DNA of 63,602 bases, counting the filler, from Globobulimina sp. (taxonomy: Eukaryota): NCBI GenBank assembly GCA_003354225.1. It is 38 parts of 38 records of this genome, joined end to end, with 100 filler letters (N's around TTAATTAATTAA, not from the genome) between each part and the next. Parts side by side here need not be neighbours in the genome. Positions count along the whole stretch, not along the records: positions 21,809 to 23,385 come from PIVH01014610.1; 37 more parts are not named here. One strand, 5' to 3'. The translations under genes were made by a program, and so were the position numbers. The notes under the pieces were generated by a model that saw nothing but the letters and a program-made list of their open reading frames with translations, ran no database searches and was not told where the DNA came from. This document shows positions 1,800 through 45,176 of this stretch, in pieces (position 1 is the stretch's first letter; every line of letters starts with the position of its first letter).

Positions 1800-1867
1800 A
1801 TGATAACCGTTTGTTGAGTAAAAAAGCAGTTTTTTCGTTTTTCGCACACGAATTTTTGTTTACTTTT
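1800..1867 (+). repeat. Dispersed 68-bp repeat, identical to 22630-22697
   Basis: ATGATAACCGTTTGTTGAGTAAAAAAGCAG...TTTACTTTT occurs identically in two unrelated contigs. Confidence 0.9.
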
Positions 1868-1961: not shown

Positions 1962-2969
1962 TTACAATGTTAATGTCAAGATTAAAGGTTTATGATCCGA
2001 GCCAAAACCAATGCCATTGGCCACATCAGAAACATAATTTTGCAGCGTTTTATTCACAAAACAATGATCCAACCTTATCGGTGGTAGCATAAAATATCGG
2101 TTTGGAAACGACTTTAAATATCTTTTCCCACATAAATGAAACACACATTTCATATCTATTTTTCTATATTGTTTTATCCAAAAATTATATTGTGTCGTAT
2201 TAAAATCACCCGCAACTAACAATCCTTTATTTACATCATTTCCAATATTTTCTTCTTTTATAAGCTCAAATATTTTGGATTGATGAGAATTAAAATATTT
2301 TATATACGCTCCATCTTTAGATATTCGAGGTGGCGGTATATGAATATTATAGATTTGAATTAATAATTCATTTTTCATTCGAACCAATGTTTTGCAATAT
2401 GGAAAACCATCAATTTCAAATATTTCAGCCTGTATCAATTCGTATTTACTAAATATTGCTATTCCAAATCCATCTCTTCTTACTTGCTTTATATGAAATG
2501 GATACATATTTGGACATAAATTGAATTTATTAAATGATTCATCCCAAATGTAACTGAATTCTTGCAATAATAAAATATCCGCATTAATCGATATTATTTC
2601 CTTTGTAATCGGCACTGGATTTGTATGGACATTTAAGAGGTTACATGAAAATATCACAATCTTACATGACTGGTCAGTGCTTGTCGCTGTGTGCAGTTTG
2701 CGATTATGTAGCCATGGTTTGATTCGATCCACAAATTCAGGATAAATTGCTGTTAAATGGCTGATGCAAATATAACATGAGGATATGACCATAAATAAAT
2801 CATCAATGTGATGCATGAATGTTAATACAAGAATCATGCATTGAATCAAATATTCATAAAATAAAAACTGGTTTATCCATATTAAATACATGTGTGCATC
2901 GTATGTTTGTGGTATTAATCGTAATGTTACAGTGATAATATGAAAGAGAGTCACTATTCTACAAAGCAT
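1962..2969 (-). CDS. Membrane-anchored endonuclease/exonuclease/phosphatase (EEP, YafD-like) protein
   Basis: Motifs SCNLL, LLLQEF, AGDFN, RLDH and SDHKP; hydrophobic N-terminus; no introns. Confidence 0.85.
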   Translation of the reverse strand: MLCRIVTLFHIITVTLRLIPQTYDAHMYLIWINQFLFYEYLIQCMILVLTFMHHIDDLFMVISSCYICISHLTAIYPEFVDRIKPWLHNRKLHTATSTDQSCKIVIFSCNLLNVHTNPVPITKEIISINADILLLQEFSYIWDESFNKFNLCPNMYPFHIKQVRRDGFGIAIFSKYELIQAEIFEIDGFPYCKTLVRMKNELLIQIYNIHIPPPRISKDGAYIKYFNSHQSKIFELIKEENIGNDVNKGLLVAGDFNTTQYNFWIKQYRKIDMKCVFHLCGKRYLKSFPNRYFMLPPIRLDHCFVNKTLQNYVSDVANGIGFGSDHKPLILTLTL

Positions 2970-3031
2970 CCAAACTAGGAGGGGACAGGCCCCAAAAACC
3001 CAAGAGGAATTGATTTCTTAAAGTTTTGAAG

Positions 3032-3256
3032 ATTCATGCATCACATTGATGATTTATTTATGGTCATATCCTCATGTTATATTTGCATCAGTCATTTAAC
3101 AGCAATTTATCCTGAATTCGTGGATCGAATCAAACCATGGCTACATAATCGCAAACTACACACAGCGACAAGCACTGACCAGTCATGTAAGATTGTGATA
3201 TTTTCATGTAACCTCTTAAATGTCCATACAAATCCAGTGCCAATTTCAAAGGAAAT
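3032..3256 (+). repeat. Inverted partial copy of the EEP gene (matches 2596-2820)
   Basis: 225-bp inverted match with 5 substitutions, 4 of them synonymous. Confidence 0.9.
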
Positions 3257-9519: not shown

Positions 9520-10068
9520 ATTGCAAGGAGAAATATTTTAAATTATATTAAATAGAATATATAAATGAACAGAAAGAGTTTGGTCAACGTTTTTCACGTT
9601 TGCAGGTAAAGTCAGTGGGATCCAAACCAAAGACAATGATGACCAAAAGTAATTAGTTTAAATATCTGTACATAATATAAATAAACTAAAACTTTGGTTG
9701 TCAGAGTCTTCGACCAACCGTCGTAGCGTACTACACGATCTCACTGACGGACAGCGCACTTCAGAAATCAGAGGACTAGGTCAGACTATATAAATCACTG
9801 TGTTCACCACTGATTTTTGTTCTGAGTGCCTATCAAAAACGGTTTTGTAACCCATGATATGAGATGCCCGTCACATGAAACTTGTTTTAGATTTTGTCCA
9901 ATAGAATGTGCTAATCTGAAAAATCAAAATGACCATAACTTTCGCAATAATGATGCAATCCAAATTCTNNNNNNNNNNNNNNNNNNNNNNNNNNNNNNNN
10001 NNNNNNNNNNNNTTAATTAATTAANNNNNNNNNNNNNNNNNNNNNNNNNNNNNNNNNNNNNNNNNNNN

Positions 10069-12054: not shown

Positions 12055-13169
12055 ATGCAATTCGTGTTGTTTTTCGTTCATTTTGGATCGGGAATATTTT
12101 GTTTCCTTATTTCATTAATCTTGTGGTTTTACTATCTTGTACAGCCAGCAATCAATGCATCAGAATCTAGCCCTATTCGTTTGTTGGCAGTGACGACTGT
12201 TATTGTGTATTGTATTAATTGTTGGACATTGACATATCGAATAAAACTTCTTGACTCAGAGCAACAGCCATCAACACGCATACAATGGAATATAGCATAT
12301 ATAACATTCGGGGTTTGGAGATTAGCGCAATCATTAACATATATTATCTTCATTTTAAGGTTAAAACAAACTTTCAAAGGCACAAAATATTCGTCATATG
12401 CATGTACTTATAATTTATTGTATGTAACAAGCATTTTATTCGCAGTTCCTGAGCTTGTCAAAGATATAATATACCAATGCTTTGCGCCATCATTGGCCGT
12501 AAAAGATTTAGTAATTGTCTGCGAATTCATTATATCCGCTATTATTGATTTAGTTCTATCCGTTGCGTTGTTATATTTATTCTTAAGAAAATTATACTCT
12601 TTGAACTTAGATATTGCTTATTTACACCGTGCAAAACTGAATACCCATAATTTAGAAAAATATATGAAAATAAATCATATCATTGCCAAAATATCACTGT
12701 TGACCCTTTGGAGTGTGACATCCACTCAGATATTAATGGCGTTATTTTGTCTCGTATTTATGTGGCATTATGATAAAGGAAACTCAATGTTGGTGATTGC
12801 ATATATTTGGAACATTGTATGGTCATTGGATTGTTGCATTAAGTAATATTTTCCCATCAAAACGCAAACATCACAACATGTACAAAACTGAAGAAACTAA
12901 AGGAAATTTAAAACGAAATGTCTGTGTTTTGATGGGAAAATATTACTTATAATAGTTGTGTTTGTATATTCTGGAGTTTTGATTTTGCAGTATCATGGTA
13001 TTTCTGCTTTTGTAGAAAATGTCATAAGCGGTGTGTTCGCTGTTGCACAGAAAGAGGAATCTATGATATTGAGCGATTATTGTCATATTCAGCACTAAAC
13101 AAACAAACAGCAAGTTCTATAAACGATTCATATCGCGCTCAAGTATTGATAGGCGATCTAATAAAATAA
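12055..13169 (+). CDS. Orphan 7TM protein; exon 1 12055-12842, exon 2 12956-13169
   Basis: Splicing gives DCCIN-CVCIFWSFDFAVSWYFCFCRKCH, which aligns without gaps to the paralog motif at 7927-8289. Confidence 0.8.
12843..12955 (+). mobile_element. TIR-bounded intron (introner-like MITE), copy 1
   Basis: 29-bp TIRs at 12843-12871 and 12918-12946 (27/29 match). The GT donor is the first 2 nt of the TIR; the intron ends in AG 9 nt after the right TIR. Confidence 0.8.
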
Positions 13170-21436: not shown

Positions 21437-22449
21437 AGATAATAATACAGAGAAACGGCAACTCCTTACTCAATAATAGTTTTTAACCTACAAATCACAT
21501 AATGGGTACTTGTTGCAGTTGCTGGGTGATTGCGTGCCGTGCCACATCAGAGTTTTCTACTATAATATTTTGTATTTGTTAATTAACCAATTTTGTGCAG
21601 CACTGTCTTTGATTATAAATTGCTTTGATTGTAATAATTTTTCAAATTGAGTTATATTTATTTGATTGTGTTGATTGTTCATGTTCGAATTCTGGATCAT
21701 TCCAATGGNNNNNNNNNNNNNNNNNNNNNNNNNNNNNNNNNNNNNNNNNNNNTTAATTAATTAANNNNNNNNNNNNNNNNNNNNNNNNNNNNNNNNNNNN
21801 NNNNNNNNCGTATCCAGTGCGCAAACAATTGAGATCACCAAAAAAAATGAGAAATAAATTGAAAAATATATTAATGTTAATTTTAATGAAGTATCCATTT
21901 TAATGAGGATAGTATCAGTATTAGTATAGGAAGTAGTACAGGTTCACGAGTTAGACTTGAAAAACTAACCTGTTTTTGTGTTTATGAAATGTTTTCAGGA
22001 TTGGAAAGGAAATTTCAAGGCGGAGAAAAAAAGTTCACAATAATAAATACATTGAACCAAATACTAAAAACATACCGAAAATTCAATTAATTATAAATTT
22101 GTTCTGACTTTGTTCTGGATTTGCAAACTCAAGACAAAGTTATAACAAACCCAGAACAAACACAAGACGAACCTATAGCAAACCGTTTCTGGATCTGAAA
22201 AGCGTTTCTCAGATAATTGAATAAAATGTATACAACTTATCGACCAGGGGGGAGGGTTATCTTTTGGAATATATCGTTCAGTTAGAAATGTATGATTTTT
22301 GGCTTAACAATTTTTGGCTTACAAGCTAGGCAATCGCACATCCACATTTACTTTCTTCAATTGTTGTGTCTGTTGTTGTATCGAATGGAAGAACTTTCGT
22401 CTCTACAAACGAAAGATGTCAATTTACATTCAGTAATAATAACATTAAA

Positions 22450-22576
22450 GTAATGTAATATTTCCAGTCAAAACACGAACAAAATATCGATTCAAAAAAA
22501 AACAGAACAAAAAACAAATACAGTATCGAACAATCGAACATAGTTCGTGTTTTGATTGGAAATATTACTCATTAAG
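22450..22576 (+). mobile_element. TIR-bounded intron (introner-like MITE), copy 2
   Basis: 26-bp TIRs at 22455-22480 and 22543-22568 (25/26 match), homologous to copy 1. GT..AG removal joins MEELSS...ITL-N-DLKDDIIKK in frame. Confidence 0.7.
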
Positions 22577-22629
22577 CGATTTGAAGGATGATATCATTAA
22601 GAAAACTGATAATCATAATACGTATTCAA

Positions 22630-22697
22630 ATGATAACCGTTTGTTGAGTAAAAAAGCAGTTTTTTCGTTTTTCGCACACGAATTTTTGTTTACTTTT
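22630..22697 (+). repeat. Dispersed 68-bp repeat, identical to 1800-1867
   Basis: Exact match between unrelated contigs. Confidence 0.9.
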
Positions 22698-22914: not shown

Positions 22915-23197
22915 TAATATTCTATATCCATAGATGAAGCGGCTTCGCCGCTTGTCACTGATACCAAATATATATATTATAAAATAATTCTATGGTACAT
23001 ACATGAAGCGGCTTCGCCGCTTGCTATAATACCAAATATTAATAAATATAAAATATTCTATGCTCATAGATGATGCGGCTTCGCCGCTTGCCATAAATAC
23101 CAAATATAAATGTTATAAAATAGTTCTGGTGCGAATGTATCCATAAATGCCAATGTATTTCTATGGCCATTTCTTCGCTTTCCATTGATACCAAATG
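22915..23197. repeat. Tandem ~68-bp repeat, 3 good + 1 decayed units, each with a GC hairpin
   Basis: A(A/T)GCGGCTTCGCCGCTT at 22937, 23006 and 23073, flanked by TTCTAT and ATACCAAAT. Confidence 0.85.
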
Positions 23198-23246
23198 TAA
23201 CGAAATTAATATAATCTAATTAATATAAGGGGTTGTTCTTATATTG

Positions 23247-23385
23247 CGCAATAACAATTGGACCTAGGATCTAGGCCATCCTTAATTGCAATAGACTAGT
23301 TTAAAGGAGCGTAGTGGGCGCATGTCTAGGGATCCTTAATTGCAATATCATGGTACCTAGGTCCTAGGTCTCAATTGTTATTGCG
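23247..23385. mobile_element. MITE-like foldback element with ~30-bp TIRs
   Basis: CGCAATAACAATTG-GACCTAGGATCTAGG pairs with CCTAGGTCCTAGGTCTCAATTGTTATTGCG; internal direct repeat ATCCTTAATTGCAATA. Confidence 0.6.
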
Positions 23386-26839: not shown

Positions 26840-28416
26840 GATTTTGGAAATTATCCCTTCACTAAATCATTAGAGACAGATATGTGGAAAAGTATCGCGA
26901 ATGATGATTATCTTAATATTATTGTACGAGATCCAGTACAAGGCGTCGGTATATTGTCAAATTGGGAAGATTTAGAAGAGTTTAAAAATGTTTGTAGCTT
27001 AGCATTAACATATAACGAAAGTTTAGTATACACTGAGTTTTCCGGTCGTTTTCCGATCATTTCTGATCCGCACAAATAATACAAATAAGGCAAATTTATG
27101 GAGAAATTCCATTTAAGTCAGGATGAAATGGAACAATGTAAGGAGAAATTAAATGAATTCACCATTGTTATCAATAAGCCAGGAGCCTGAGATTGATCCA
27201 CTTGTATTGAACAATCATTGATCCGGTGCTGGTCTCTATAAAATGGTAAGCGACGGCATACGCAAAGGAGAATGTATTAAATACATCAGAGTTTCCATCT
27301 GCTTAGAGGTTCTTCAGATTAGCGTCAAAAATTTGCAAGGATTAGATTACAGCGTAAGCTGGATTAGCTAAGATTGCTTAGAGCTAAGCAAAGATTAACT
27401 TTGTAAGCTGAGTGTCAGATTATCTTTGTAAGCTGAGTAAGATTAACAGCCCCCCCCTTAAATACTAGCTCAAACTTTCTCTTAAATAAACAGCCCTCCC
27501 TTAAATAAATGTCGCAACACGAAGAAAAACAACAGTCACGAGTCCCAACATCGGGTCAAAAAAGATGCCGAGATAATGACGAGTATTTCGAATCACTTGG
27601 CCCAGTCAAGAAACCAAAACTAAGTAAGAAAAGAACAAAATTAGCAAAAGGTGATAATGACACAATAAAATATCAATTAGCTGCAGGTTCATACAAAATA
27701 ATAAAATATTCAGAAGATGATAATAATAGTAATTATAAATATGCATCATGTGTAGTCGATGCAAGTAATGAATTAGAATATGCAAAATTATTTGATGTTA
27801 AGGATTATGATAAAACAGCACATATAAATTTAATAATATCAATTGGTGCAACCCCATATGTATTCATCTGTGATAAATGCTATGAAGATGGTATTATTCA
27901 AATATGGAAATATATGACATCATCAGGAAATTTAGCAACACACCAAACAAAGAAACATGCATTGATTACAACTACATTGAAGTGGAAAAGAGAACATAGA
28001 ATGCAAATGTTACAGCCAACAATTGAATACGTTTCGTGGGACAGAAAATCATTTAATGGTTTAAAAGGCGATGGTTTAAATCAGATTCTTACCGCCGCTT
28101 ATAACTTAGGATGTCAATTGGCGAAACCAGTTACAACATTAAGTATGTTTTCCGGTAACTTCTCTGTTTTTATATGACACACTCACAAATATACAGGTGG
28201 TTTATTATTTTGCCCAACAGTGATATCCACGCGAGTTAGAGAAAATGGTCAAGAGATTGAATCGCAACGAAGAGTATTTTATCGAAACTATTTTGGCGAT
28301 TTTGGAAATTATCCCTTCACTAAATCATTAGAGACAGATATGTGGAAAAGTATCGCGAATGATGATTATCTTAATATTATTGTACGAGATCCAGTACAAG
28401 GCGTCGGTATATTGTC
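26840..28416 (+). mobile_element. Internally deleted hAT transposon on a self-closing contig (119-bp terminal direct repeat; 1458-bp unit)
   Basis: 26840-26958 equals 28298-28416; transposase N-terminus present; CAGAG-start candidate end near 27287 followed by short subterminal repeats. Confidence 0.7.
27509..28416 (+). CDS. hAT (Hermes-like) transposase, N-terminal part; intron 28155-28196; continues across the overlap to 27079
   Basis: BED-like finger FICDKC...NLATHQTKKH, DRKSFNGLKGDGL (Hermes DNA-binding-domain-like), CPTVISTRV, TDMWKS (first catalytic Asp). Confidence 0.72.
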
Positions 28417-31766: not shown

Positions 31767-31876
31767 ATNNNNNNNNNNNNNNNNNNNNNNNNNNNNNNNN
31801 NNNNNNNNNNNNTTAATTAATTAANNNNNNNNNNNNNNNNNNNNNNNNNNNNNNNNNNNNNNNNNNNNATATATAA

Positions 31877-31940
31877 GTGATGATAGCTCAATGAGAGCAT
31901 CCTATTGAATAAGATTTGGGTCCAAATCCCAATCATCACA
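31877..31940 (+). tRNA. tRNA-like / pseudo-tRNA (anticodon arm degenerate, no variable loop)
   Basis: Acceptor stem GTGATGA/TCATCAC, D-stem GCTC/GAGC, T-stem TTGGG/CCCAA, followed by T6. Confidence 0.5.
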
Positions 31941-32309
31941 TTTTTTATTTAATTTTGTGATTCAGCCAATTTGTGTGTTTATCACGTACAAGTTGCCTTT
32001 TTCGTTTCTATTTTACCAGCTCTAGAGCTGGTAAAAGTGTTTTTCGTTTCTAGTTTCTAGTTCTAGGCGATGTAAAGTGGCACTTTTTGGCTCGGTAATG
32101 TCTTAATTACTGCGTTTTTTTTGGTAAAGTTGCATATGAATAATATACTATTGTTTTTCTGTTTTTGTGTTTTTCTGTTTTTGTTTTTCTGTTTTTGACC
32201 TTTTTTCACCTTAAAAGTTTTCAAGATGCCGTCATTCTGCTGTATAAGCTCACGTTTATTGCATTTATAATATAGGAATTTTGCTCAGTTAAAGCGTGCT
32301 GAAATAGCA

Positions 32310-33132
32310 TTGGATCATAATTACTTTTCAAAAGGAATTGTATCAGATGATCATGCCTGGTTTTGTGGTTTAACAATAGATCATCATTTGAATATGGGTC
32401 ACAAATCAATAAATTCAAATACTAGAATTGGTCAAATGCAACAAGAAGATATCAACCAAGATAGAACCAACTGGCATTGCATTTGCTATCGTAAATCTAA
32501 ATTCAACGCAGTTGGTCGAGGATATTATGCGATTACTTCCATGCGATTGGCACAATAAAAACAAAACCTTACCATCCTCCATACCATTGTTTGAGCAAAG
32601 TCAACAATATTTAGCTGCATATGTCCGTGGTGTTTCTGATGCAGATGGGTCATTCCGTTTTGATTTCAATCGAGGACGAATTACTTGGGCTTTTCAAAAA
32701 CAAAGCGAGGAATTTGTAGAAAGCATCCATACACTGATTTGGAGCGGTTGTAATGTTGATACACATAAAAGGAATAATATTACAAAGAATGGAACAAAGG
32801 TAACACATTTATGTATTAGTAGACAATCTGATGTAATTGATTTTGCTCAATGGATATATTGTGGTTTTGATGAAAATATTGTTTCAATGTTGCCACGCAA
32901 ATTCAAGAGATGTTTGTTGCTGAAACAAATGTTGGAGAGTACTAGTGATATTAAAAGCCTTGAAAGATGTGACATGGCAAGAAAACTTGCAGAACAGGAA
33001 TATTTTGAAAGGATCAAAATTCATAACCAATTTGTTCAATGGATGCATGAAAATAATCAAAATTTTAATTTTCAAAACACGTTTCGAGATCGTGTTCATT
33101 TGATGAAAGAAAAGTATGAAAAGAGCACATAA
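32310..33132 (+). pseudogene. LAGLIDADG homing endonuclease-like gene, first motif eroded and frameshifted
   Basis: DHNYFSKGIVSDDHAWFCGL in one frame; AYVRGVSDADGSF...SEEFVESI...FAQWIY...LPRK in another. Confidence 0.7.
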
Positions 33133-33295
33133 GAGCGAGTACTGTCACGTACACAAAAACCCGAAAAGTGAAATCGTTGCTTTTTTGCATGCTCTACAAC
33201 AGCGCTAATCACATACAGTACCCTGAGGCTTCATGCGTTAGCACCGATTCGTTACCAAACAAAAAGCGCGACGAGGGATCTACAAACTGCATCGG

Positions 33296-33444
33296 GAATT
33301 TTTGTTGTTCCTCGGCAGAATTGCTCTCGCTCCCTAACAGGGAAATCACTTGGATGTTTTCTTGAAGCAAAGCCATCAGAAATCCCTCCAAAATGTCAAA
33401 ATTGGCTTTATCCCGTAGCACCGTTTTGATGGCCCAATCAAAAC
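33296..33444 (-). CDS. Fragment of bacterial Rpn/PD-(D/E)XK nuclease family putative transposase
   Basis: FDWAIKTVLRDKANFDILEGFLMALLQENIQVISLLGSESN is the typical N-terminus of this bacterial family. Confidence 0.75.
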
Positions 33445-33544: not shown

Positions 33545-35120
33545 CCTCCGCCTAAAACTGTCAGTCAAAATCGTGGCCGGAGCGGTTCCGGCCGTGGGTA
33601 TGGTCATGGCAGAGGTGGTAGATTTCGTAGTCATGGTGGTCGTGTGAATCAAGTAGACACTTCGAACACTTATAATGAAGGTGCCTTCACAGCAGTTTGT
33701 GGGGTTGAATTTCAAAAAGACAAGAAGTATTGGGTGATTGATTCCGGTGCAACTAGACATATGACAGTTGATAAAAATGTTCTGTTTGATTATCATTTAT
33801 TGTCTGTTCCCGAATCTGTGTCCATTGCTGATGGTACTAAATGTAATGCTTTAGGTGTTGGTAAATGTGTAATGTATATACATGTTAGTGATACCAATTC
33901 TGTTAAATGTACTTTACATGATGTACTGTATGTCCCCAATTTGTCAAGTAATTTTTTCTCTGTACGTGCTGCAACACTTTGTGGCAATATTGTTGAATTT
34001 GGTCATTCCAAATGTTGGATCACAACTTCCAAGCAACAGTTAGTTGCTACTGGTCACTTACAAGATCAAATGTATGTTTTGGATTGCCAATCAGTGGAAC
34101 AAGTGAAACCTGATCAAGTGTGTGTTGCAACGACAGAAAGTCAAAAATTGGACTTATGGCATCAACGGCTCGGTCATATTGGTTGTCAATGACTCAAAAA
34201 TGCAGTGAACAAGAATCAGCTCACTGGCATTGACATTCCTTCTCAACAACTCAGTAAAGGAACCTTGTCATTTTGTGATGGCTGTGCCGAAGGAAAAATT
34301 ATACGAAAGCCCTTCAAGCCTATCGGTGAAATCAGATCAACGAGAATCTTAGAACTTGTCCACAGTGATGTTTGTGGTCCAATGAATGTTCAATCACTAG
34401 GTGGAGCAAGATATTTTGCGACATTTACTGATGATTTCAGCCGAATGTGTCAAGTTCACTTTATGCGAAACAAGTCTGAACTTATGGAGAAGTTCAAGTT
34501 GTATGAAGCTTCTGTCTACAATGACTGTGATTGGAAATATCGCATCAAACGCTTCCGTAGTGACAATGGAGGAGAATACACTTCGAAAGAATTTGAAAAT
34601 TATTTGAAGTCGAAGGGGATAAAGCATGAAGTCACCACACCATATACTCCTCAACAAAATGGTGTCGCTGAGAGAATGAACCGAACACTCCAAAATATTG
34701 CCATTGCTCAGGTGTCACATGCCAGTTTGTCGAAAGGTTTTTGGGCAGAGTCAATTGAAAATGCCAATTACATTCGAAATCGGGTGCCCACATCGACTAC
34801 ACAAATGACACCTTATGAACGCTGGTATGGTCGGAAACCAAATGTTAGCTACTTCAAAGTGTTTGGTTGTGTTGCATTTGCTCTCAAACCTGATGTGAAT
34901 CGGAAGAAGTTTGACATGAAATCTGAAAAGCTTCGATTTATTGGATATCCTCGTGGTTCAAAAGGATACAAATTGTGGGATGGAACCAAACATCAAATTG
35001 TAATTCGACGTGATGTGTTGTTCAATGAGAACGAGTTTGATCTATCCAAATGGAGTCCAGTTGATCCCGGTGATCCTCCTGTTGACAGACCTATGGTAAT
35101 TGTACCACCTGCTCAAATAC
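33545..35120 (+). mobile_element. Ty1/copia LTR retrotransposon gag-pol fragment with an in-frame TGA at 34190-34192
   Basis: WVIDSGATRHM (protease), LWHQRLGH, HSDVCGP, RSDNGGEY, QNGVAERMNRTL (integrase). Confidence 0.95.
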
Positions 35121-43120: not shown

Positions 43121-43984
43121 TATCTAAGCTAAGTCAAAATTAAAAAAATCGATAAAGTTGTCAAATTCGATAAAGCTCAGATTTTGTGAAAACATTTAAC
43201 TTAGTTTGTCCAAATTCTAAACATGATATTTGCAATCTAGGGAGTTTGTAGATATCGACACAACTTTCAAGTGTTGAAAAAAATTGAATATTCGATGAGC
43301 TATGCTCCATTCAAAAATTTTCTGAATTGAGCATTTTTTTGAGTTTTGAAACTGAATATAATAACTGTGCTATATTCCTAAGAATATCTGGACATTTATC
43401 AGTGAATAATAAATGCAATATATTCAAATACTGAAAGCAATATTGTTTGTCATTATTTTCGCAAAATGTCATAAATTTATTATAATTATTGCTTATAATT
43501 NNNNNNNNNNNNNNNNNNNNNNNNNNNNNNNNNNNNNNNNNNNNTTAATTAATTAANNNNNNNNNNNNNNNNNNNNNNNNNNNNNNNNNNNNNNNNNNNN
43601 CGACTGGTTCAAGTTCAACATCACGGTCACGATCGCGATCGCGATCACGTTCACATAAAAAATCAAGACATAAACGGAGATATAAACACTCAAAAAACAG
43701 AAAAACAAAAACTCAAAAATCTGATTTACAATAAAATATATATTTTGTTTTTGACATATAGACTTTTAAGTATTTTACTTTTTGATTTATTTGATTTCAG
43801 TCATCGTATCCCATTGCTACGAATTTGTGTCATTCCAATGTCGCATGATTCGCATCCAATTGCTGTGAATTTGCGTCCAATGAATGATTCGCAGGCAATG
43901 AACAAAGCAAACAATAAATTAAAATCCAATCCGTTTTTACTGACAAACAATGTCAGAATTTTCTGAATAAATATGATGATGCAA

Positions 43985-44270
43985 ATTGGGCGCATATTTT
44001 GAGTGTGTTATGATGGTGATATTGGGCGCATATTTGAGTGAGTTATGATGGTGATATTGGGCGCATATTTGAGTGTGTTATGATGGTGATATTGGGCGCA
44101 AATTTGAGTGAGTTATGACGGTGATATTGGGCGCATATTTGAGTGAGTTATGATGGTGTTATTGGGCGCATATTTGAGTGAGTTTTGATGGTGATATTGG
44201 GCGCATATTTGAGTGAGTTTTGATGGTGATATTGGGCGCAAATTTTGAGTGTGTTAATATTGATGGTGTT
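43985..44270 (+). repeat. Tandem array, ~8 x 35 bp
   Basis: Unit ATTGGGCGCATATTTGAGTGAGTTATGATGGTGAT with few variants and no spacers. Confidence 0.95.
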
Positions 44271-44646
44271 ATTCTGTGCTTGTTTCGCTCGTATTGTTAT
44301 TTATAATGTCTCAAAATCTGCAAACCAAAGAATATAATAACGTAATATTATTACATTACCTGTTTCAGCTCGCATTACGACATTAAACTGTGAGCGCAAA
44401 AACAAAGTTTTAGCTAAAAGATTTAAACAAACATCAAAAAGATCATGCTTGCTAAAGAAACATATTTTAACAATGGAACAAGAATATTGTATTCCGCAAA
44501 TTATTTATGGCGTTTTGGAAACGATTATGGAATTATGATGTGTTTTAATATTAATAGCTCCAAACTGTGCCAAATTAACACTGAGCACTCGTTAACGTCT
44601 GTAGAATGTGTTAATATTAATAAAAAAACATAAATAAAATTATTGT

Positions 44647-45176
44647 ATGTATAAAGTTAAAGACCCTGGCTTTGCCGAAAATTATCTTCAACAAAATGGT
44701 GGTGTGGCAAAACCTTTTGCTTCATTTAAAAAACCAAAACCTTCAATTAGCAAAACTGAAATGAAAGAAGCCGAAGCGAAAGAAAGTTATGTTTCGTCAT
44801 ATTATTTTGTATGTTCTACATGTGTGATGAATGTGAATTACTATGTACAGGTTATGAACAATTACAATCTAAACTTGAAGCAGCAGAAAAAGAAAACTGT
44901 GAAATGAGAGAACAAATAAATAGAAGCAAACGAAGTGGTGATTATGATGATAGATATCATGGGCATAGATCCCGTGGGCATAGATCTCGACATAGATATA
45001 AAAAACGTAGACATCGTAGATATGAACGTTATTCTGATTCAAGCTCCAGATCGAGTTCGACTGGTTCAAGTTCAACATCACGGTCACGATCGCGATCGCG
45101 ATCACGTTCACATAAAAAATCAAGACATAAACGGAGATATAAACACTCAAAAAACAGAAAAACAAAAACTCAAAAA
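44647..45176 (+). CDS. Small basic coiled-coil + Arg/Ser/His-rich protein; intron 44786-44850; ends across the overlap at 43732-43734
   Basis: Spliced EAKES-YEQLQSKLE...SRSRSRSRSHKKSRHKRR...TQKSDLQ*. Confidence 0.55.

Follow-up and report, generated by a model that had tools for sequence, protein, structure and literature searches.

A small family of hairpin elements in Globobulimina that probably works like an introner

Can a short hairpin element that has landed in an exon be removed again as an intron? The question is raised by a locus at position 22449 of the window, by which we mean the whole stretch of 63,602 nucleotides of Globobulimina sp. DNA analysed here, that is, 38 contigs of ~1.6 kb joined by N linkers. 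An earlier note had described the segment 22450..22576 as the second window member of a family of terminal inverted repeats (TIR), coinciding with a phase-2 GT-AG intron, and had taken the family to be numerous. We searched the assembly (70.2 Mb in 48,370 contigs, from a eukaryote with spliceosomal introns) with DNA and pattern searches, and the candidate loci were then inspected individually. We find a family of elements with defined ends and locus-specific target-site duplications, copies of which lie in unrelated genes in a GT-AG geometry that restores the reading frame. With a probability of roughly 0.65, this is a family of non-autonomous hairpin DNA transposons (80-171 nt), small and for the most part old, whose insertions into exons would become introns by the mechanism proposed below.

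The copy at 22449 and its host frame

The locus consists of the following features:

22385..22449, plus strand: candidate host exon 1, from the ATG at 22385, 21 codons; the frame is open for 54
22443..22448, plus strand: left target-site duplication CATTAA (5-bp core ATTAA), exonic
22449..22569, plus strand: hairpin element, 121 nt, non-coding, with AGT...ACT termini (AGTAAT...ATTACT)
22450..22576, plus strand: predicted GT-AG intron, 127 nt, phase 2
22450..22454, plus strand: tandem duplication of GTAAT, with the donor GT left outside the predicted stem
22455..22480, plus strand: left inverted-repeat arm (donor side)
22543..22568, minus strand: right inverted-repeat arm (acceptor side)
22552..22556, plus strand: branch-point-like TTGAT, a putative branch point with its A 21 nt upstream of the intron end
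22570..22575, plus strand: right target-site duplication CATTAA, intronic; its final A and the host G at 22576 form the predicted acceptor AG
22577..22629, plus strand: coding-like start of candidate host exon 2
22630..22697, plus strand: first part of a dispersed repeat not related to the element, with the same sequence as window positions 1800-1867; it scores as non-coding, and the host frame enters it

The segment that had been noted is that of the predicted intron; the element itself runs from 22449 to 22569, with AGT as its first and ACT as its last bases. The repeat had been described accurately. Its arms agree with each other at 25 of 26 positions, and the copy at 12843, with arms that match at 25/27, does belong to the same family. 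Between the two copies there are 22-23 identities, that is, the arms pair better within each copy than across copies. Both copies are preceded by CATTAA(A), and their terminal AG lies 8 and 9 nt past the right arm. The 127-nt segment folds with z = -10.4 relative to dinucleotide shuffles. Excision of 22450-22576 changes ...ITLK* to ...ITLNDLKDDIIKK, just as had been claimed, and the joined frame, MEELSSLQTKDVNLHSVIITL-N-DLKDDIIKK, has 75 codons. If the alternative donor GT at 22455 is used, the stop remains and the frame is not restored.

The intron had been made to depend on a host ORF that is transcribed or conserved. Once joined, the frame stays open over 54 codons on the exon 1 side and 53 on the exon 2 side (p = 0.003 against 2000 shuffles of the flanks, either strand). 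For the 115 unique exon bases we obtain a score of 6.7, which equals the coding median and is higher than all 2000 draws from an in-sample non-coding null. On the other hand, we were not able to find a homologue of the host frame among longer proteins, a Pfam family or a paralogue in its own genome, either as DNA or as protein. The ORF appears coding, and its conservation finds no backing among homologues or paralogues. The frame reaches the repeat 17 codons into exon 2. Likely, we see the start of a real gene that was later disrupted or that continues past the contig.

Sequencing runs were consulted for this contig only. Among the 15 of 26 contig joints listed from four of the seven runs with this contig, none of which is on record as RNA, there is no joint of 22449 to 22577. 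Runs X2, X3 and X6 do not cover 22339-22603, which has no bearing on expression. Run X1, a contig of which bridges 22257-22576, contains no empty allele of the copy, and neither an empty allele nor a spliced read was seen for any other member of the family. The bridging contig ends exactly at the acceptor G 22576, where a variant or a read error is possible.

Potentially, the family is real and this copy is nevertheless an ordinary mini-transposon, never spliced, in non-coding DNA or in the stub of a dead gene. A host frame lacking homologue, paralogue and family would be expected in this case, and the contig is indeed a patchwork of high-depth repeats. About half of the family loci are non-coding, one-armed or rearranged, and by base composition alone a G follows the duplication at about one in six sites. 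Against it stand the significant frame restoration and the two unique exon pieces, both of which are coding-like in the joined frame. Moreover, the ATG lies 65 nt upstream, which can be compared with 26-40 nt at L010, L012 and L014, and the copy retains its donor, its branch-point-like motif and its AG intact. We consider a never-spliced copy unlikely, though worth bearing in mind, and rate it as rather probable that the 22449 copy is spliced out. Taken alone, this copy would be of little weight.

Members, target sites and size of the family

Family arms occur on at least 20 contigs of the assembly and have the consensus AGTAATATTTCCAGTCAAAACACGAAC. The members are L001 (the 22449 copy), L004 (the 12843 copy), L002, L003, L005, L006, L010-L014, L016, L018, L019, L024, L025, L074, L169, L170 and L171. 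In a weight-matrix scan the 27-nt arm was specific, with 0 matches in a reversed control. As in MITEs, the elements are short (80-171 nt), non-coding and bounded by terminal inverted repeats (arms of ~27 nt). Their interiors are of low complexity and rich in short GAACAAA-like runs. Copies L013, L019, L171 and probably L018 are non-coding, L003, L006, L016, L024 and L025 have one arm, and L074 is rearranged and lies inside a frame with no nearby AG. An Rfam search gave hairpin matches only, far below the gathering scores.

The right end of the element is fixed by L169 and L170, which share 97% identity over 127 nt and have unrelated right flanks, since they diverge exactly after ATTACT. A single CAP-Gly gene (homologue P0004) is split between the left flank of L169 and the right flank of L170, and in the right flank of L169 a hydrolase gene ends, on the opposite strand. 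This flank swap implies that contig C10, which carries L169 at 9838-9990, joins two copies by misassembly or recombination; L170 lies on C9459.

To align the flanks, as the earlier note had suggested, we compared the five bases before the element with the five before the acceptor G (at L171, with those directly after the element). A 5-bp duplication is perfect in six of nine scored copies, or 6/13 two-armed copies: ATTAA (L001, where C extends it to 6 bp), AACAA, TAATA, ACAAA, AATTA and AATAA. The non-coding L171 is among these six. In five of them the length is 5 bp; L001 has 6 bp. Imperfect duplications are found at L012 (4/5), L004 (3/5) and L018 (3/5). With the final A excluded, 31/36 bases agree inside a locus, compared with 41% from one locus to another (p = 1.1e-5; 362,880 permutations, 9 copies), where the registers of L001, L004 and L170, with fillers of 1, 2 and 15 nt before the right duplication, were chosen post hoc. 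The same test on seven copies gave p = 0.0004. The two-armed copies L002, L013, L019 and L074 show no duplication and were excluded from the permutations. Thus the alignment yields a locus-specific target-site duplication of 5 bp, as in MITEs.

Of the supposed target preference one part stands: all nine left junctions, in plus-gene orientation, read A directly before AGT. CATTAA as a fixed target does not stand, since it is the duplication of this locus and other loci have ACAAA, AACAA, TAATA, AATTA or AATAA. We also tried a TA duplication, as for Tc1/mariner, and an AG duplication; each fits one copy only.

Next, how large is the family? Two copies among 38 small contigs had been read as the sign of a high-copy family whose RNA hairpin, kept by compensatory change, brings donor and acceptor together. 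The first half of this reading concerns copy number. By contig depth, which is a rough measure, run X1 covers 22286-22603 including the element 5-8 times, as against ~10,000 times for the neighbouring repeat at 22074-22280 and ~6 for single-copy sequence. End-to-end element patterns gave 7 and 3 matches versus 20 and 17 in controls, i.e. no enrichment, and a two-mismatch 16-mer search of the assembly stayed at chance (84 versus 78 in the control); among 48 of its places that we inspected, L074 was the sole true copy. We also scanned 72 further contigs (535,789 bases), which are long and so probably repeat-poor, with a weight matrix and found three arm matches, namely one two-armed copy and one chance match in a gene. 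The density of the window predicts ~18 copies for these 536 kb; one was observed. Note that the repeat at 22074 has only two matches in the same 536 kb despite its very high read depth, so the assembly contains too few of the truly high-copy repeats and young copies of the family could be missing. Taking the ~20 loci together with these figures, we estimate that the family has some tens of copies and no more than a few hundred, and the high copy number of MITEs is not what we find.

Several other loci were discarded. L102, L103, L104 and L105-L108, which apart from L104 came from the end patterns, have no family arm or perfect duplication, and L007-L009, L015, L017, L122 and L172-L174 are chance matches or unpaired.

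Candidate introns in unrelated genes

Eight copies break coding frames in GT-AG geometry, in all three phases:

phase-2 candidate introns: L001, L004, L011, L012
phase-1 candidate introns: L014, L169/170, L005 (L005 by its right end only)
phase-0 candidate intron: L010
12842..12947, plus strand: second window member, L004
12843..12955, plus strand: L004 candidate intron in a membrane-protein gene, 113 nt, phase 2; its boundaries match the uninterrupted proteins P0001 and P0002

The phase 2 of both window copies is not a rule, as four candidates are in phase 2, three in phase 1 and one in phase 0. The host genes are not paralogues: they encode zf-MYND, UAA, His_Phos_1 and CAP_GLY proteins as well as proteins without a family. 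For example, L004 spliced in silico reads LDCCINCVCIFWSFDFA, where P0001 and P0002 have LDCCINSFCLFLSFDFA. Removal of the CAP-Gly copy restores the four-residue GVEL-GKNDG spacing seen in P0004, and its boundaries are fixed exactly by homologues. L011 separates two open stretches of a zf-MYND gene, 207 and 161 codons long, which splicing would join (shuffle p < 0.0005); its upstream exon has no homologue among longer proteins. L014 lies upstream of a UAA-transporter frame, L005 upstream of a histidine-phosphatase frame that matches from profile position 3, and L012 allows a plausible four-exon gene model without a Pfam match. Frame restoration is not significant at L010, L012, L014 and L018 (p 0.17-0.35).

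The eight candidate introns share their end motifs. Their interiors align among L012, L169 and L170 only, and other pairs match at one arm (at a nominal database size). We also see that L001, L005, L010, L012, L014, L169 and L074 lie within ~190 nt of a start codon, and that L013 and L025 are located just upstream of genes.

If the elements had instead entered or inflated short introns that were already there, GT and AG would be inherited from those older introns. There are loci that suit this idea: L002 is nested in a 200-nt intron (of a gene that we take to be sulfatase-like, from its motif), and 15 additional bases precede the acceptor of the CAP-Gly copy. P0001, P0002 and P0004 are uninterrupted at the intron positions and may derive from transcripts; that the genomic sites lack introns is therefore not proved by them. 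The position of the splice sites speaks to the contrary. The GT belongs to the inverted repeat, the left duplication is exonic and its match abuts the acceptor G, so that at L001, L010, L011, L012 and L014 a prior intron would have had no space. We therefore hold prior introns to be improbable.

The stems bear on the second half of the high-copy reading. They are strong in six of seven copies (z -3 to -10), and the two arms of each window copy are each other's closest match, as a hairpin under selection would have it. However, the donor-side arms decay just past GTAA, and the acceptor-side arm is nearer to the consensus in six of the seven scored copies, with one tie, which is not what a hairpin kept to approximate donor and acceptor should look like. 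The arm variants TCCAG, TGCAG, TTCAG and CCACTC recur at several loci, as expected of subfamilies; the likeness within copies is explained by this without any compensatory change, for which the earlier note had proposed a test. Together with the copy numbers, this makes a high-copy family with a selected RNA hairpin very improbable.

What the copies do have in common is TTGAY, found 20-24 nt before the intron end in 7/7 scored copies; the branch-point consensus is YTRAY. The pattern fits a branch point under selection and a hairpin that decays. In the young L169, though, the arms are unequal already, and asymmetry may thus go back to the master element.

The mechanism that we propose would work as follows. 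The element inserts into an exon at NNNNA followed by G, and 5 bp of the A-ending target are duplicated. Nucleotides 2-3 of the element would then serve as the donor GT(AA), the arm at the far end would provide the TTGAY branch point, and the final A of the right duplication would form the acceptor with the next host G. Removal by the spliceosome would keep the length of the mRNA, the first A of the element replacing the host G in the exon. As the element ends are symmetric, intron function would be possible in either orientation. At 22449, the insertion would have occurred 65 nt after the probable start codon and changed ITL-S-D to ITL-N-D, in a host gene that may be broken further along by later repeats.

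The modelled empty sites predict S>N at L001, R>K at L011, A>T at L014 and in the CAP-Gly gene, and a silent change at L010. This G-to-A recoding is unconfirmed by homologues. At the L004 junction P0001 and P0002 have Asn, where the model requires an ancestral Ser, so L004 does not fit the recoding. The junction residue of the CAP-Gly gene is uninformative, being Pro in the closest homologue; 95 motifs in 150 proteins show D 48, E 11, N 11, K 9, A 1 and T 1 here.

Relation to known elements and to other repeats of the window

The transposon origin of introns is established. In the accessible portions of the literature, the rhizarian genomes that were checked are reported to be without introners: this holds for Reticulomyxa filosa, Bigelowiella, Paulinella and Plasmodiophora (Gozashti et al. 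2022, PMC9860276), for Reticulomyxa filosa again, with 0 introner families (Gozashti 2025, PMC12130899), and for two cercozoans without introner signal (PMC13746701, PMC12730881). In the available supplements of 2022 and 2025 (PMC9860276, PMC12130899) Reticulomyxa filosa is the sole foraminifer that we found. A report of foraminiferan introners was not found in the literature searched, mainly open papers without preprint supplements. The Globobulimina family, on comparison of its sequences, is a real and small TIR/TSD family that probably works like an introner. A small, diverged family of this kind would show that introns can be gained through low-copy elements, which surveys by similarity could miss.

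The closest parallel, by description and not by sequence, is the second mode of introner-like class 13 in Polarella glacialis, with 182 introns in the accessible part of the preprint (Roy et al., bioRxiv 10.1101/2020.10.14.339549). There, too, nucleotides 2-3 of the element serve as donor, the acceptor consists of the last duplicated A and a host G, and the mRNA length is unchanged. Judging from that part, class 13 differs in its 4-nt duplication, GC donor, first base G (GGC start) and unaltered exon; the Globobulimina family has 5 bp (6 at L001), a GT donor, an AGT start and a predicted exonic G->A, and eight candidate introns instead of 182.

Introners with TIRs and target-site duplications, as far as the available text of the sources describes them, include IE1 of Micromonas pusilla, those of Chrysochromulina and others (Gozashti et al. 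2022, PMC9860276; review PMC11282704). Like these, our elements are short and non-autonomous, bring their own 5' splice site, co-opt the 3' site at the insertion point and are present inside and outside genes. Unlike these, the AG of our candidate introns straddles duplication and flank, and the copies are few and diverged, with mostly unalignable interiors. As given in the accessible text, introners are called from at least four introns that are alike to near both splice boundaries (BLAST E<=1e-5), with non-paralogous hosts, splicing, a new position and a similarity that is not due to low complexity (PMC9860276).

A further lead, and a lead only, is Maverick/Polinton, described in the available text as having (AGT)2//(ACT)2 or (AG)3//(CT)3 ends, a 6-bp duplication and viral-type genes (PMC8097293). 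The AGT start, the ACT end and the 6-bp duplication at L001 are similar; the AGTAAT//ATTACT ends, the mostly 5-bp duplications and the absence of genes place our elements outside this group as so described. Tentative, and on balance doubtful, is the more far-reaching reading that this is the first introner family of Foraminifera or Rhizaria, that donor and branch point come from its symmetric AGT...ACT ends in either orientation, at the price of one G->A per gain, and that it is maybe still mobile (the 97% pair), maybe by a Maverick-type integrase.

The window contains further repeats. Around the 22449 copy, 22074-22280 is a dispersed repeat of very high depth, found in all four runs compared, and 21862-21967 and 23187-23385 are more high-depth repeats (~1,000-2,700 in X1), the latter rich in short palindromes such as CCTAGG. 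Three tandem units of 67-69 nt, each with a GCGGCTTCGCCGC hairpin, occupy 22916-23130; they are directly joined to the repeat of 22630-22697 in contigs of X2 and X3, so both are probably parts of one element. Elsewhere, a 228-nt inverted repeat, 97% complementary, is found at 2596-3256 at the end of contig 2, and two contigs (26840-28416 and 43601-45176) have the same 119 nt at both ends, as circular or tandem assembly units. Finally, from their motifs, we take 33545-35120 to contain a copia-like integrase frame and 31869-33444 a LAGLIDADG-like frame.
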